A stretch of DNA of 5,188 nucleotides from a virus (lineage: Duplodnaviria > Heunggongvirae > Uroviricota > Caudoviricetes). Every line of letters begins with the position of its first letter. Position 1 is the first letter of the stretch. Both the position numbers and the translations under genes were made by a program. Where the stretch lies: IMG/VR virus record IMGVR_UViG_2734482594_000011. One strand, given 5' to 3'. Positions 1,152 to 5,188 of this stretch are shown here, one piece after another. The notes beneath the pieces are model-generated. The model was not told where the DNA came from. It was given only the letters and a program-made list of their open reading frames with translations, and made no database searches.

Positions 1152-1823
1152 TCAGCGACCAATCACCACGATTTCACCACCATCACCTTCATCAGCTGTA
1201 CTGATTTCCTGAGATGCCACACGTGACCCCACGCGCATTTCACCGTACAGAACGGGCAGAACATTGCCCTGGGCAACCATGTTATCCAGTGAGGAGAAAT
1301 AGGTGTTCTGCTTACCGTTATCCGTGCTGGTCGCTGTGGGCGTCCGGGCTTTCGGTGCCAGCATCTGCGCCACACCACCGAGCACCATACTGGCACCGAG
1401 AGAAAACAGGATGCCGGTCATACCACCGGCCCCAATGGCTGCTCCCCATGCTGCAAGGGTGGCTCCGGCGGTAAAGAATGATCCGGCAATGGCGGCTGCT
1501 CCCAGGACAATCTGGAATACACCTCCGGGCTTGGCCCCGGCGACTCTGGGAACAATATGAATCACAGCGCCATCAGGCAGAGCCTCATGTAACTGCGCCG
1601 TTAATCCGGACGTGCTGACATCCCGCCCGGCAATCCGTACCTGATACCAGCCGTCGCTCAGTTTCTGACGAAACGCCGGGAGCTGCGTGGCCAGCGCCCG
1701 GATGGCTTCAGCCCCTGTTTTCACACGAAGATCGATGCGGCGGCCAAATCGTTGTAAATCCCCGTAAAGGCAGATGCGTGCCATGCCCGGTGACGCCAGA
1801 GGGAGTGTGTGCGTCGCTGCCAT
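1152..1823 (-). CDS. I: Tail assembly protein I (223 aa): ubiquitin-like N-terminal region plus Gly/Ala-rich hydrophobic C-terminal region
   Basis: Complete 223-aa ORF, ATG at 1823..1821, TGA at 1154..1152. Translation MAATHTLPLASPGMARICLYGDLQRF... is recognised as lambda gpI. Length and position between K and J match lambda. Start overlaps the 3' end of K by 103 nt. Confidence 0.92.
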   Translation of the reverse strand: MAATHTLPLASPGMARICLYGDLQRFGRRIDLRVKTGAEAIRALATQLPAFRQKLSDGWYQVRIAGRDVSTSGLTAQLHEALPDGAVIHIVPRVAGAKPGGVFQIVLGAAAIAGSFFTAGATLAAWGAAIGAGGMTGILFSLGASMVLGGVAQMLAPKARTPTATSTDNGKQNTYFSSLDNMVAQGNVLPVLYGEMRVGSRVASQEISTADEGDGGEIVVIGR

Positions 1824-2464
1824 TTGTCGGTATACCTCTCTCGTTTGCTCAGTTGTTCAGGAATATGGTGCAGCAGCTCGCCGTCGCCGCAGTAAATAGC
1901 GGCATGATTCGGCACCGATGAACCAAAACAGCACAGCAGCACATCGCCCGGCTGCGCCGCTGACAACGGCACCTGATACAGCCCTGTGGCCTCCAGATTA
2001 TCAAGATAGAGATTCTGGCCGTTACGCCACCAGTCATCCTCACGATAAAAGTCCGGCATCTCAATCCCCGCCAGATGGTAAGCGTCCCGGAACAGCGTGT
2101 AACAGTCCGTCACCCCGTGCTCAAAGCGCCGCCCGGTGAGATGCGGCACACAGCGGAACTTGTGAATCGCCCCCCGGCAGACCAGCCACCACGGCAAATC
2201 ACTCTGCACCTGCAGCCGCCGGTCGGCCTCACTCAGCCAGGGCAGACCACCGGGATGACTGTGGACCAGCGCCACAATCTCACCCTGCATTTCTGCCTGC
2301 AGCCAGTCCTCCGGCGACATCCGGAAATAATCCTCCGGCTCACCGGAGATATTCACGCAGGGAAAATATCTTTCCCCCTCCGGCGTTCTCACCACGAAGC
2401 CGCACGACTCCGCTGGCGCACATCGCCGGGCGTGCGCCAGAATCGCTGATTCTGTCTCTGTCAT
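1721..2464 (-). CDS. K: Tail assembly protein K, a two-domain JAB/MPN (JAMM) metallopeptidase-like plus NlpC/P60 cysteine peptidase-like protein; 247 aa if started at MTETES (2464), 199 aa if started at MSPEDW (2320, the classical annotation)
   Basis: ORF is open from 2539 to stop at 1723..1721. ATG at 2464..2462 lies 4 nt after the L stop. An in-frame ATG at 2320..2318 has a GGAGGA Shine-Dalgarno about 10 nt upstream. JAMM-like motif HSHPGGLPWLSEAD (HxH-x7-S-x2-D) is present. NlpC/P60-like signature: Cys in GVTDCYTLF, His in NHAAIY, then LLHH. Recognised as lambda gpK. Confidence 0.85.
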   Translation of the reverse strand: MTETESAILAHARRCAPAESCGFVVRTPEGERYFPCVNISGEPEDYFRMSPEDWLQAEMQGEIVALVHSHPGGLPWLSEADRRLQVQSDLPWWLVCRGAIHKFRCVPHLTGRRFEHGVTDCYTLFRDAYHLAGIEMPDFYREDDWWRNGQNLYLDNLEATGLYQVPLSAAQPGDVLLCCFGSSVPNHAAIYCGDGELLHHIPEQLSKRERYTDKWQRRTHSLWRHRAWHASAFTGIYNDLAAASIFV

Positions 2465-2468
2465 GGGA

Positions 2469-3167
2469 TTACTGCGAAAGTTTGTTAATGGAAAGGAAGC
2501 CGCCAAAGTTGCCGACGTTATTGCGGAACTTACAGCCACTCAGGCATTTGCTGCATTTATCCTTCGTGATATCGGACGTCGGCTGGTCATATTCATCCGC
2601 GACCGCCGGACCGCTATAACCGCACTCATCACCGCGATAGGTCCAGGTGCAGGTGTTGGCCAGCATGATGCGCCCCGGAAAAACAGCACCATCCGTTTCC
2701 GTCGGCGTGGACAACACAAAGGAGGCACTGACCGCGCTCAGTTCGCTGCACTGCTCGACGCGCCAGCGGCTGATCACCTCCTGCTCCGGATCGGCATCAC
2801 TGTTTCCGTTGACGAAATTCACCGCATCCAGAAAACGGGCGTAAACCTTACGCCTGACCACCGTTCCGCCGACCAGACTCTGCAGATCTTCCACCATCCC
2901 GGTGACCATACCGTACAGGTTAGAAACCGTCAGCGTGGGGCGCGTACTGGTGCCTTTGCCATTCAGTTCAAAACCGCTCCCCTGAATGGGATACGCCTGA
3001 TACTGTCGCCCCTGCCAGGTGACCGGCTCACCTTTTTCGTTCTGCTCATTACAGAAAAAATAACGTTCTCCACCGACCTCTGTCAGATCGATTTCCCAGA
3101 GCACCACGCTGGCCGACTGCTCCGCACGGGTGCATTCATTCAGTGTTTCCTGTTGGATATCCTGCAT
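2469..3167 (-). CDS. L: Tail tip protein L (232 aa), with a C-terminal cysteine cluster consistent with an iron-sulfur-binding region
   Basis: Complete 232-aa ORF, ATG at 3167..3165 overlapping the M stop (TGATG), TAA at 2471..2469. AGGTGGTG Shine-Dalgarno-like sequence upstream. Translation MQDIQQETLNECTRAEQSASVVLWEIDLTEVGG... is recognised as lambda gpL. C-terminal cysteines occur in NTCTW, DECGY and DKCSKCLSGC. Confidence 0.92.
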   Translation of the reverse strand: MQDIQQETLNECTRAEQSASVVLWEIDLTEVGGERYFFCNEQNEKGEPVTWQGRQYQAYPIQGSGFELNGKGTSTRPTLTVSNLYGMVTGMVEDLQSLVGGTVVRRKVYARFLDAVNFVNGNSDADPEQEVISRWRVEQCSELSAVSASFVLSTPTETDGAVFPGRIMLANTCTWTYRGDECGYSGPAVADEYDQPTSDITKDKCSKCLSGCKFRNNVGNFGGFLSINKLSQ

Positions 3168-3496
3168 CAGTTCACCACCTGTTCAAACTCTGCGCTGAAC
3201 TCAACACGCAGCATACTGACCCGCGACGACCATTTTGCGCAGGTCACCTTTATCTGCCGCCACTCATAAGGCGGCGTCCACAGAAAGGCTTTCCAGCCCC
3301 CGTGCTCAGCCAGAAACGACTCCAGCGCTGTGGCCTCCCAACGGGGAACAGAAAGCGTCACGCTGTACGTTTTCAGGTCAGCGTTCAGCCCGGCAGGCGC
3401 TCGCTGGGAATAGCCATCACCAAAGCGCACCTTTCTTACGGAAGGGGCCGAAGCCACATCCATACCGGGTTTCACTTTCCAGCGGAAGGTTTTCAT
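3167..3496 (-). CDS. M: Tail tip protein M (109 aa)
   Basis: Complete 109-aa ORF, ATG at 3496..3494 overlapping the H stop (ATGA), GGAGGTGG Shine-Dalgarno 5-7 nt upstream. Translation MKTFRWKVKPGMDVAS...EFSAEFEQVVN is recognised as lambda gpM. Length and order (H-M-L) match lambda. Confidence 0.92.
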   Translation of the reverse strand: MKTFRWKVKPGMDVASAPSVRKVRFGDGYSQRAPAGLNADLKTYSVTLSVPRWEATALESFLAEHGGWKAFLWTPPYEWRQIKVTCAKWSSRVSMLRVEFSAEFEQVVN

Positions 3497-5188
3497 CGTC
3501 CACCTCCGGAGAACAGACCACCATCGCGCATCTGCCCGGTCACAACATCCATTGCCGCCTTACGGGCTACGTCATAAACAGCCTTCAGTGCCTGTGGCCC
3601 TATCTGACCGTTCGTGCCGTCGTTGTTAATCACCACATGGTTATTCTGCTCAAACGTCCCGGACGCCTGCGACCGGCTGTCTGCCATGCTGCCCGGTGTA
3701 CCGACATAACCGCCGGTGGCATAGCCGCGCATCAGCCGGTAGAGATTCCCCACGCCAATCCGGCTGGTTGCCTCCTTCGTGAAGACAAACTCACCACGGT
3801 GAACAATCCCCGCTGGCTCATATTTGCCGCCGGTTCCCGTAAATCCCCCGGTCGCAAAATGGAATTTCGCCGCAGCGGCCTGAATGGCTGTACCACCTGA
3901 CGCTGATGCGCCACCACTGGCAGCACCGCCAATGGCGCTGCCGATACTCCCGACAATCCCCACCATTGCCTGCTTAAGCAGAATTTCTGTCATCATGGAC
4001 AGCACGGAGCGGGTGAAGCTGCGCCAGTTCTGTTCACTGCCGGTCAGCATCGCCGCCATATTCTGTGCAATACCATCAAAGGTCTGCGTGGCTGCACTTT
4101 TAACCTGTGACATACTGTCCGTGGCGCTCTCTTCCCACTCACTCCAGCCGGACTTCAGGCCTGCCATCCAGCTCCCGCGAAGCTGGTCTTCAGCCGCCCA
4201 GGTCTTTTTCTGCTCTGACATGACGTTATTCAGCGCCAGCGGATTATCGCCATACTGTTCCTTCAGACGCTGTTCCGTGGCTTCCCGCGCTGCCTGCCGG
4301 TCAGTCAGCCCCCGGCTTTTCGCATCAATGGCGGCCCGTTTTGCCCGTTGCTGCTGTGCGAATTTATCCGCCTGCTGCGCCAGCGCATTCAGGTGCTCCT
4401 GATACGTGACCTTATCGCCAAGTGCAGCCAGCTGGCGCTTGTACTCCAGCGTCTCGTCTTTATGCGCCAGCAGGGATTTCTCCTGTGCAGACAGCTGGCG
4501 ACGTTGCGCCGCCTCCTCCAGTACCGCGAACTGATTCTCCGCCTTCCACAAATCCCGGCGCTGCTGGCTGATTTTCTCATTCGCTCCGGCATGCTTCTCC
4601 AGCGTCCGGAGTTCTGCCTGAAGCGTCAGCAGGGCAGCATGAGCACTGTCTTCCTGACGATCGCCCGCAGACACCTTCACGCCGGACTGCTTCGGCTTTT
4701 TCAGCGTAGCTTCATAATCCTTTTTCGCTGCCGCCATCAGCGTGTTGTAATCTGCCTGCAGGATTTTCCCGTCTTTCAGTNNNNNNNNNNNNNNNNNNNN
4801 NNNNNNNNNNNNNNNNNNNNNNNNNNNNNNNNNNNNNNNNNNNNNNNNNNNNNNNNNNNNNNNNNNNNNNNNNNNNNNNNNNNNNNNNNNNNNNNNNNNN
4901 NNNNNNNNNNNNNNNNNNNNNNNNNNNNNNNNNNNNNNNNNNNNNNNNNNNNNNNNNNNNNNNNNNNNNNNNNNNNNNNNNNNNNNNNNNNNNNNNNNNN
5001 NNNNNNNNNNNNTGTCGTCTGCTTTCTTAAACGCAGCCTCTGCCTTAATCAGCATCTCCTGAGCGGTATCAGGACGACCAATATCCAGCACCGCATCCCA
5101 CATGGATTTGAATGCCCGTGCTGTCCTGTCTGCCCAGGTCTCCAGCGTGCCCATGTTCTCTTTCAGGCGGCGGGTCTGGTCATCAAAC
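3493..5188 (-). CDS. H: Tail tape measure protein H, 3' portion; the 5' end lies beyond the window end and the ORF passes through the N-masked segment
   Basis: Minus-strand frame is open from 5188 to TGA at 3495..3493. Codons upstream of the listed Met read FDDQTRRLKEN-MGTLETW, so the Met at 5154 is internal. Coiled-coil-like, charge-rich middle (AQEKSLLAHKDETLEYKRQLAALGDK...), Gly-rich hydrophobic segment (VGIVGSIGSAIGGAASGGASASGG) and C-terminus ...MRDGGLFSGGGR are recognised as lambda gpH. Confidence 0.9.
   Translation of the reverse strand, partial: FDDQTRRLKENMGTLETWADRTARAFKSMWDAVLDIGRPDTAQEMLIKAEAAFKKADDXXXXXXXXXXXXXXXXXXXXXXXXXXXXXXXXXXXXXXXXXXXXXXXXXXXXXXXXXXXXXXXXXXXXXXXXXXXXXXLKDGKILQADYNTLMAAAKKDYEATLKKPKQSGVKVSAGDRQEDSAHAALLTLQAELRTLEKHAGANEKISQQRRDLWKAENQFAVLEEAAQRRQLSAQEKSLLAHKDETLEYKRQLAALGDKVTYQEHLNALAQQADKFAQQQRAKRAAIDAKSRGLTDRQAAREATEQRLKEQYGDNPLALNNVMSEQKKTWAAEDQLRGSWMAGLKSGWSEWEESATDSMSQVKSAATQTFDGIAQNMAAMLTGSEQNWRSFTRSVLSMMTEILLKQAMVGIVGSIGSAIGGAASGGASASGGTAIQAAAAKFHFATGGFTGTGGKYEPAGIVHRGEFVFTKEATSRIGVGNLYRLMRGYATGGYVGTPGSMADSRSQASGTFEQNNHVVINNDGTNGQIGPQALKAVYDVARKAAMDVVTGQMRDGGLFSGGGR
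4781..5012. other. Run of 232 ambiguous bases (N): assembly gap or deliberate mask inside the H coding region
   Basis: Directly visible. Spans H codons translated as X (about 78 codons). The flanking real sequence is in the same reading frame on both sides. Confidence 0.99.

Follow-up and report, generated by a model that had tools for sequence, protein, structure and literature searches.

Among phages with long non-contractile tails, bacteriophage lambda serves as the reference organism. [quoted passage not shown] According to this literature, the JAB domain would strip the N-terminal ubiquitin-like domain off the I product during tail-tip assembly, and K would not be retained in the virion. 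Known systems close to the first domain are stand-alone prokaryotic JAMM/MPN+ enzymes, including Pyrococcus furiosus JAMM1 (5LD9/5LDA), the Haloferax desampylase HvJAMM1 and Archaeoglobus AfJAMM; the JAMM motif, EXnH(S/T)HX7SXXD, and the role of its Glu were defined by Ambroggio et al. (PMC300881). Comparators for the second domain are NlpC/P60 peptidases such as MepS/Spr of E. coli and LytE of B. subtilis. Lambda gpK itself (TIPK_LAMBD/P03729, NP_040598, AAA96551) has 199 residues in its reference entries.

On its minus strand, the DNA analyzed here (the window, 5,188 nucleotides) carries a tail-tip cluster of lambda type in the gene order H, M, L, K, I. A sequence-only reading had taken the window for lambda, but it belongs to a relative that shares 95.4% identity with the lambda reference over the region. 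Gene L (positions 2469..3167, 232 aa in the open reading frame list) is syntenic with lambda L at 13429-14127, and its TAA stop (2471-2469) forms part of the junction with K. Gene I (1152..1823, 223 aa) encodes a ubiquitin-like domain (PF06805, residues 14-97) followed by a C-terminal structural domain. Between them lies the full-length K coding sequence (1721..2464, 247 aa plus stop), identified from reading-frame, domain, homologue, substitution and structure evidence and assigned to PHROG phrog_30, 'minor tail protein' (E = 1.4e-162). Its exact protein occurs on 279 contigs in public collections under the name 'C40 family peptidase'. Lambda gpK is an orthologue: like the window gene, it has L and I as its neighbors in an identical H-M-L-K-I order, with the same 103-nt K/I overlap, and is 96.8% identical to the window protein once a missing G (discussed below) is restored. 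The L-K spacer is 5 nt in lambda, compared with 4 nt here.

Direct reading of the minus strand bears out most of what had been said about the K frame. The frame stays open over 272 codons between 2539 and its stop codon (1723-1721). The most upstream candidate start had been called an ATG; the codon at 2539-2537 is GTG, although its overlap with L (71 nt) and its lack of a Shine-Dalgarno (SD) sequence stand. ATG 2464-2462 follows the L stop by 4 nt (TCCC) and yields 247 aa (N-terminal stretch MTETESAILAHAR...), and ATG 2320-2318 yields 199 aa and is preceded by GGAGGA (2336-2331) with a 10-nt spacer. In the JAMM-type motif, HSHPGGLPWLSEAD, the first residue of HSH is number 68 in the 247-aa form and number 20 in the 199-aa form. 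The K-frame stretch between these two ATGs is open in the window but closed in the lambda reference. An open frame is in itself weak evidence, since the chance of 48 codons staying open is ~0.18 at this composition; the weight therefore rests on domain, conservation and substitution tests.

The argument that the 199-aa form truncates the JAB domain was borne out by a profile comparison of the two forms. The Prok-JAB model (PF14464, gathering score 25) matches the 247-aa form with 52.7 bits over residues 4-98, covering profile positions 4-103 of 114. The 199-aa form retains only profile positions 63-103, scores 22.9 bits and fails the threshold. The Glu predicted to lie upstream of the HxH is Glu19 (GAG, 2408..2410), within a P-x-E-x-C-G motif upstream of Met49; it is the predicted JAMM general acid-base residue and is missing from the 199-aa form. 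With it, the motif E-Xn-H-(S/T)-H-X7-S-X2-D is complete (E19, H68, S69, H70, S78, D81). Glu19 is invariant in 39/39 and in 9/9 aligned homologues. The same tally found the four residues of the predicted zinc-binding part, H68-S-H70-x7-S78-x2-D81 (2222..2263), invariant in 39/39, and the alignment column of S69 is invariant as well. An NCBIfam desampylase model also matches residues 3-114 of the 247-aa form, at a score (28.4) far under the model cut-off of 130, and this match is lost in the 199-aa form. In a homologue profile search, the JAB proteins 2kks, 2kcq and 5lda from the PDB align from profile position 4.

Structure prediction points the same way. The AlphaFold model of the 247-aa form (pLDDT 92.4, pTM 0.87) is predicted to place JAB-fold elements within the first 48 residues: one helix (3-15) and two strands (21-27, 30-36), with pLDDT values of about 90-96. 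Foldseek aligns this model with JAMM1 (5lda/5ld9) at probability 1.00, with a target TM-score of 0.62 and an rmsd of 3.0 Å over 109-112 columns, and its JAB domain also superposes on Rpn11 and CSN5. A prediction for the 199-aa form gave a pLDDT of 36.5, but it was run without an alignment; it is uninformative, cannot be set beside the 247-aa model built from an alignment, and was not counted as evidence. From the profile and Foldseek matches, residues 1-110 (approximately; 2135..2464) are predicted to be a complete JAB/MPN+ (JAMM) zinc metalloprotease domain. K shares the complete E-Xn-H-S-H-X7-S-X2-D motif with JAMM1, HvJAMM1 and AfJAMM, and the N-termini of these stand-alone enzymes align with that of K. 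K differs in being fused to NlpC/P60, and according to the conference report the ubiquitin-like domain that it cuts off belongs to a linear fusion, gpI, and not to an isopeptide conjugate.

The NlpC/P60-like Cys/His signature that had been noticed in the C-terminal half is likewise present, as Cys121, His187 and His199. PF00877 (cut-off 23 bits) scores 48.3 bits over its full profile (positions 1-105 of 105), the Cys-His-His triad is invariant in 39/39 homologues, and Foldseek matches this part of the model to MepS/Spr, LytE and Acd autolysins. Residues 111-224 (1793..2134) are thus predicted to be an NlpC/P60 (C40) cysteine peptidase domain. K shares the whole-profile Pfam match, the triad and the fold with MepS/Spr and LytE but lacks both a signal peptide and a module for cell-wall binding. 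The architecture matches the published JAB plus NlpC/P60 fusion proposed to act with the ubiquitin-like I, to which the sequence-only reading had alluded; judged by the available text of Iyer et al. 2006, nothing substantive separates the window protein from the TAPK family in domain architecture or I neighborhood. Natural split versions of K also occur (PHROGs 2635 and 2552), in which the two domains can act as separate proteins.

We also examined how codons 2-48 evolve, as protein-level conservation had been named as a check on the longer form. Homologues are about as similar to the window protein over residues 2-48 (56% identity) as over residues 49-110 (57%), and E19, C21, G22, N38 and F47 are invariant in 39/39. 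A tblastn search with the 247-aa query matched 1745 phage records, 1720 of them with at least 80% query coverage, and among the 60 matches listed, with identities as low as 27%, the alignment always begins within residues 1-8. Synonymous-biased substitution was found: variable sites in codons 2-48 are distributed 11/7/22 over the three codon positions (chi-square p = 0.011), and pooled pN/pS is 0.27, somewhat above the 0.16 of the remaining gene. In a comparison with a prophage copy at 88% identity, codons 2-48 have a dN/dS of 0.11 and the remaining codons one of 0.10, and the synonymous excess in codons 2-48 is significant (Fisher p = 2.9e-6). By this pattern of substitution, codons 2-48 evolve as coding sequence under purifying selection. 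Many database clusters contain 247-aa proteins and several contain 199-aa proteins; these lengths were not counted as evidence for either start because gene callers set them.

Domain content, Glu19, the substitution pattern and the structural model all agree with the earlier proposal that the functional start is at or near 2464. In every close relative an ATG is aligned with Met1. The claim that K is translationally coupled to L held in its sequence features. ATG 2464 has no SD (anti-SD duplex +0.7 kcal/mol), and it stands 4 nt from the L stop in the junction TAA-TCCC-ATG (2462..2471), the proposed termination-reinitiation site; both the short spacer and the missing independent SD are as expected of a coupled gene pair. 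The K start after L has no SD across the lambda group, and the distance from L stop to K start is -4 to +11 nt in 26/31 distinct junctions of relatives. The coupling step itself is one that we infer: most likely, ribosomes ending L would reinitiate at ATG 2464, 4 nt past the stop, and this would tie K synthesis to L.

Could translation begin farther upstream, or between the two ATGs? The candidates are GTG 2539 (2537..2539, 272 aa), TTG 2506 (261 aa) and GTG 2395/2392 (224/223 aa). The frame in the window is open up to 2539, but the extension is in frame only with a 4-nt L-K spacer. In relatives, the length of open frame upstream of Met1 varies with the L-K spacer (7, 25 or ~90 codons), and it is just 7 codons in lambda, phage 434 and most relatives. 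Neither GTG 2539 nor TTG 2506 has an SD; GTG 2539 was rejected on this ground (duplex +1.2 kcal/mol) and because the upstream extension is unconserved in relatives. As for the intermediate starts, RefSeq NC_049955 annotates a 223-aa product, and a weak SD-like match (-6.1 kcal/mol) accompanies GTG 2395/2392. However, the 223/224-aa forms begin past Glu19 and are without helix 1 and the P-x-E-x-C-G motif, and homologue alignments start at Met1. We regard use of any of these starts as highly improbable. Very probably, then, gene K of this lambda-type phage or prophage encodes one 247-residue two-domain peptidase that begins at ATG 2464, and the 199-residue K is an annotation artefact.

The origin of the 199-aa call had been framed as a question of start choice. 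Several candidate starts do exist, but it was a single-base omission that forced the 199-aa start in lambda. At the site homologous to lambda 14266 (2330..2331), the window reads GGAGGATTATTTCC, in frame, and J02459 lacks one G (GGAGGC[G]TATTTCC). J02459/NC_001416 reads GGAGGCTATTTCC here; five independent lambda-derived records read GGAGGCGTATTTCC, each with a 247-aa ORF. Whole-genome comparison of LC730321 with J02459 gave the same additional G, and 14266 C>CG is listed for the MutaMouse lambda-gt10 transgene (PMC6760142). We also found 20 de novo contaminant contigs spanning the site in assemblies of unrelated organisms; all contain the G, with 0-2 mismatches to the lambda reference (none in 14). 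Two non-reference GenBank records, OR974322 and OR474059, carry the version without it. Addition of G at 14266 restores the 247-aa ORF in lambda. Its omission shifts the first 44 residues into another frame, and the K frame is then closed at a point 18 nt before the internal ATG. The 199-aa call arose because the 1982 sequence, without the G, left the original annotators only the next ATG, which by chance follows a GGAGG made by Pro-Glu codons. On these sequence comparisons, the absence of G at 14266 in J02459/NC_001416 is very probably a reference error behind the 199-aa K. A programmed -1 frameshift or a two-piece, split JAB in lambda was also considered, prompted by the stop after the post-L ATG in NC_001416; this idea was dropped because every independent lambda sequence examined has the extra G.

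These data also bear on the classical view, in which translation from ATG 2320 gives the sole functional K, of 199 aa, and 2464-2321 is an untranslated spacer. That view has the RefSeq and Swiss-Prot annotation of lambda behind it, together with the strong SD at ATG 2320 and the closed upstream frame of the lambda reference. The closure, however, is due to the missing G, which every independent lambda sequence examined carries. Moreover, the supposed spacer is under purifying selection and holds invariant JAB residues, the JAB model falls under the Pfam threshold without it, and distant homologues have no Met at position 49. The classical view is therefore scarcely tenable.

A related proposal is that K is made as two isoforms, the 247-aa protein and a 199-aa product (NlpC/P60 plus a JAB remnant) that has its own role and starts at ATG 2320. 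The internal site (2318..2336) has an SD duplex of -9.5 kcal/mol 10 nt before the ATG, compared with none at ATG 2464, and both the ATG and GGAGG are found in the window, lambda and phage 434. Nested products are known elsewhere in lambda, as in C/Nu3 and S105/S107, which provide a precedent. Several observations argue against this proposal. Met49 is kept in only 9/39 homologues and is Ile (21), Leu (7), Phe or Thr in the other 30; it is replaced even in prophage copies from E. coli that share 88% identity with the window. The GGAGG consists of codons of the conserved Pro43-Glu44, and the 199-aa product would hold ~60 residues of an incomplete JAB fold and no catalytic Glu. Finally, the SD and ATG lie inside a GC-rich hairpin (2296..2349) with a minimum free energy of -28.1 kcal/mol (z -3.49; 0/200 shuffles equally stable). 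We consider two isoforms unlikely; in the window, the GGAGGA-ATG most likely just encodes Glu-Pro-Glu-Asp...Met49.

The hairpin was also assessed as a possible conserved RNA element. The region folds at -19 to -28 kcal/mol in relatives, but the structures differ and have no consistent pairing; therefore, no functional RNA is claimed. By analogy with the other nested gene pairs of lambda, translating ribosomes might open the hairpin and expose ATG 2320 as a working second start, which would give a regulated mixture of full-length K and a 199-aa isoform with only the NlpC/P60 domain. We hold this to be a long shot. The single 247-residue product remains our reading of the gene.

The 247-aa K is correct but largely known in practice, and is already the standard PGAP call: PGAP annotates K as 744-nt genes in E. 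coli genomes, and 247 aa is annotated in the phage 434 record OL657226 and the lambda record PV340536. The records of Feiss et al. 2022 give 199 aa for the K of lambda imm434 and 247 aa for that of phage 434, and the paper mentions just '9 differences' from the published sequence. RefSeq lambda (NP_040598) and UniProt TIPK_LAMBD still list 199 aa. Our literature search found no paper that explicitly links the G at 14266 to a longer K, and the truncated lambda reference entry is not discussed in the available text of Iyer et al. 2006. The main addition made here is the cause of the 199-aa call, the missing G at 14266. NC_001416 alone is misleading on this point: its frameshift in the disputed segment mimics non-coding sequence, yet is a reference error.

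What follows in practice is a request to correct J02459/NC_001416 and P03729; the finding does not amount to a new biological system. Copies of NP_040598 and TIPK_LAMBD enter annotation pipelines, interaction maps, cloning designs and structure predictions, and the reference K entries lack the catalytic glutamate and ~40% of the protease domain. Expressing or modeling the 199-aa entry would give a misfolded or inactive JAB domain. The correction is timely, as the removal of the gpI ubiquitin-like domain by gpK is now being worked out.

On the minus strand of the window lie the tail-tip genes of a late operon of lambda type: H, of which the 3' part is present (3493-5154), M (3167-3496), L (2469-3167), the K reading frame (2539 to 1721) and I (1152-1823). 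A masked stretch of 232 N at 4781-5012 breaks the tape-measure gene H and is unrelated to the K finding. The window belongs to a relative of lambda, not to lambda. Identity over the K region is 95.4% with the lambda reference (J02459/NC_001416) and up to 99.3% with prophages and phage-plasmids of E. coli. The stop of one gene and the start of the next sit close together all along H-M-L-K: the H-M overlap is 4 nt (3493-3496) and the M-L stop/start overlap a single base (3167). Such spacing fits translational coupling among the tail-tip genes.

Direct reading of the minus strand bore out a K frame open for 272 codons and two of the three starts proposed for it in a sequence-only reading. The 247-aa form begins at ATG 2464, which the four bases TCCC separate from the L stop TAA (2471-2469). 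ATG 2320, which is Met49 of that form, yields the classical 199-aa K, in which the JAMM HSH begins 20 residues from the start; GGAGGA lies upstream of this ATG at 2336-2331, leaving a 10-nt spacer. The codon at 2539, described as ATG, is GTG. At this composition, 48 extra open codons would arise by chance with a probability of about 0.18; the open frame is thus unremarkable alone, and the case rests on domain, coding and start tests.

The sequence-only reading had claimed that the 199-aa form truncates the JAB (JAMM/MPN+ metalloprotease) domain, and profile searches agree. The Pfam Prok-JAB model (114 positions, cut-off 25 bits) aligned positions 4-103 with residues 4-98 of the 247-aa form at 52.7 bits; without the first 48 residues only positions 63-103 were matched and the score fell under the cut-off, to 22.9 bits. 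A weak match to the NCBIfam archaeal desampylase (residues 3-114) was likewise lost in the short form. A profile built from 39 homologues, which share 29% to 97% identity with window K, matched the stand-alone JAB structures 2kks and 2kcq and JAMM1 (5lda) from profile position 4, so the N-terminus of the 247-aa form corresponds to that of complete JAB domains. In the JAMM motif, E-Xn-H-(S/T)-H-X7-S-X2-D, Glu is the general acid-base catalyst, and its mutation abolishes Csn5 activity (PMC300881). The counterparts of the motif in K are E19, H68-S-H70, S78 and D81, and window K encodes every catalytic residue of both the JAB and the NlpC/P60 domains. E19, the conserved Glu expected before the HxH, lies upstream of Met49 and is invariant in the 39 homologues, as are C21, G22, N38 and F47.

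An AlphaFold model of the 247-aa form, built from the 39-homologue alignment (mean pLDDT 92.4, pTM 0.87), places a helix at residues 3-15 and strands at 21-27 and 30-36. With block pLDDT values of 95, 91, 96 and 89 over the first 48 residues, the JAB helix and two strands are confidently predicted within this segment. Foldseek aligned JAMM1 over 109-112 columns (rmsd 3.0, target TM-score 0.62) and also matched Rpn11 and CSN5, with separate matches to MepS/Spr and LytE. We assign the first three to the N-terminal domain and the matches to MepS/Spr and LytE to the C-terminal one.

Conservation of the N-terminal 48 codons at the protein level, suggested as a check, was found both in the invariant residues and in a synonymous bias. 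Identity to window K is 56% at residues 2-48 versus 57% at residues 49-110. In a set of 20 distinct alleles of 247 codons, the variable sites of codons 2-48 number 11, 7 and 22 at the first, second and third codon positions (chi-square p = 0.011), and pooled pN/pS is 0.27 there versus 0.16 in the remaining gene. Comparison with an 88%-identical prophage copy gave 15 synonymous and 7 non-synonymous changes in codons 2-48 (Fisher p = 2.9e-6), with dN/dS of 0.11 in these codons and 0.10 in the remainder. Of 50,697 phage records searched by tblastn, 1745 matched the 247-aa K, over at least 80% of the query in 1720; in the 60 records listed, which include T1-like, HK022-like, Burkholderia, Ralstonia, Vibrio and Rhizobium phages, the match starts at residue 1-8. 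Judged from this conservation, the phage matches and the patterns of substitution, the 2464-2321 segment is coding.

An ATG aligned with Met1 is found in all close relatives. Upstream of it, the length of open frame varies with the L-K spacer: 7 codons for a spacer of 5 nt, 25 for 4 nt and about 90 for 10 nt. GTG 2539 is therefore no conserved option. The 223-aa start (RefSeq NC_049955) lies downstream of E19. ATG 2464 lacks a Shine-Dalgarno (SD) sequence (anti-SD duplex +0.7 kcal/mol). Of 31 distinct L-K junctions in relatives, 26 place the K start at -4 to +11 nt relative to the L stop, in the form of TGATG, ATGA overlaps or short spacers. From this anatomy we infer that K is probably translated via reinitiation by ribosomes terminating on L. 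The only uncertainty left about the start concerns a minor 199-aa isoform made besides the 247-aa K, which we consider very improbable. ATG 2320 has a strong SD (-9.5 kcal/mol); that SD consists of conserved Pro-Glu codons, and Met49 is kept in just 9 of 39 homologues (Ile in 21, Leu in 7). The internal SD and ATG 2320 are also enclosed in a hairpin at 2296-2349 on the minus strand (-28.1 kcal/mol, z = -3.49). This GC-rich hairpin is made of repeated CCGGAGG/CTCCGG elements; the folds of relatives are stable but different, and support no conserved RNA element here.

The same hairpin coincides with the position of a G missing from the lambda reference. J02459/NC_001416 reads GGAGGCTATTTCC, and relatives are one base longer there in the alignment. 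Translation from the post-L ATG of the reference runs into a stop codon: ATG 14133, at the JAB N-terminus, is in a different frame from K, and the K frame is shut by a TGA 18 nt upstream of ATG 14276. An 86-nt query with this reference version had just four exact matches in the phage collection (J02459, NC_001416, OR474059 and OR974322). By contrast, GGAGGCGTATTTCC and an unbroken 247-codon gene occur in five independent lambda-derived genomes: PV340536, lambda imm434 OM418626, KT232076, lambda DE3 EU078592 and LC730321. The MutaMouse lambda-gt10 transgene carries 14266 C>CG (PMC6760142). Between the whole genomes of LC730321 and J02459, the additional G at the K site is one of 15 differences; another is a G deletion at 138, which MutaMouse lambda-gt10 shares. 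A further one is a +C at 20832, within the orf-401 region that holds the known side-tail-fibre frameshift of laboratory lambda.

The additional G is also present in 20 contigs spanning the K site in assemblies of unrelated organisms (Pseudomonas, Shewanella, Bradyrhizobium, Paenibacillus, Enterococcus, MAGs and others), with 0-2 mismatches to the lambda reference and none in 14. Such contigs have low coverage, and some are 48.4-48.5 kb. They evidently stem from contaminating lambda DNA that was assembled de novo, and amount to independent resequencing of the K site. The simplest reading is that one base was omitted from the 1982 sequence, which would be the origin of the 199-aa K; gel compression would be expected in such a GC-rich, hairpin-forming stretch. 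A naive comparison with NC_001416 would falsely refute the longer K, since the frameshift lies within the disputed segment.

The facts behind the long K are already present in databases. The exact sequence of the 247-aa lambda K occurs in at least 1000 contigs of public collections, under the names 'C40 family peptidase' or 'PAD1/JAB1 superfamily' protease; the NCBI pipeline PGAP calls a 744-nt gene in E. coli genomes, phage 434 and PV340536 have the long K, and the HK022 homologue is annotated straight after that of L. The 199-aa version is kept in NC_001416, J02459, lambda DE3, lambda imm434 and Swiss-Prot TIPK_LAMBD. Near-identical sequences (among NC_049955, OM418626 and KT232076) have K annotated as 199, 211, 223 or 247 aa, and one batch from the same submitters gives 199 aa for lambda imm434 and 247 aa for phage 434. 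Our literature search found no published link of the missing G to the short K. Apart from the identity of one codon, the sequence-only reading was right, including its interpretation.

The start problem of gene I, the ubiquitin-like neighbour, runs opposite to that of K. A PGAP-style call from GTG 1724, over the K stop, gives 190 aa covering only positions 26-83 of Pfam Lambda_tail_I, and thus truncates the ubiquitin-like domain. The classical start, ATG 1823 (minus strand, 223 aa, SD -9.3 kcal/mol), and the alternative ATG 1784 (minus strand, 210 aa) both retain positions 2-83 of 83. Three PHROGs are K fragments, namely phrog_7305 (76 positions), phrog_2635 (135 positions, K residues 1-132) and phrog_2552 (142 positions, K residues 108-246), indicating that many phage records have a split or truncated K. 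Such cases may be genuine genes for the JAB or the NlpC/P60 domain alone, or else artefacts of frameshifts.

K is not found in the virion (PMC10721106). In a 2006 paper, its JAB domain is predicted to free the ubiquitin-like domain of the gene I product (PMC1779556), and a 2025 conference report on Davidson-lab work states that gpK removes this domain from gpI after gpI joins the tail-tip complex (PMC12908700). The K start is a matter of annotation legacy, not new biology. [quoted passage not shown]
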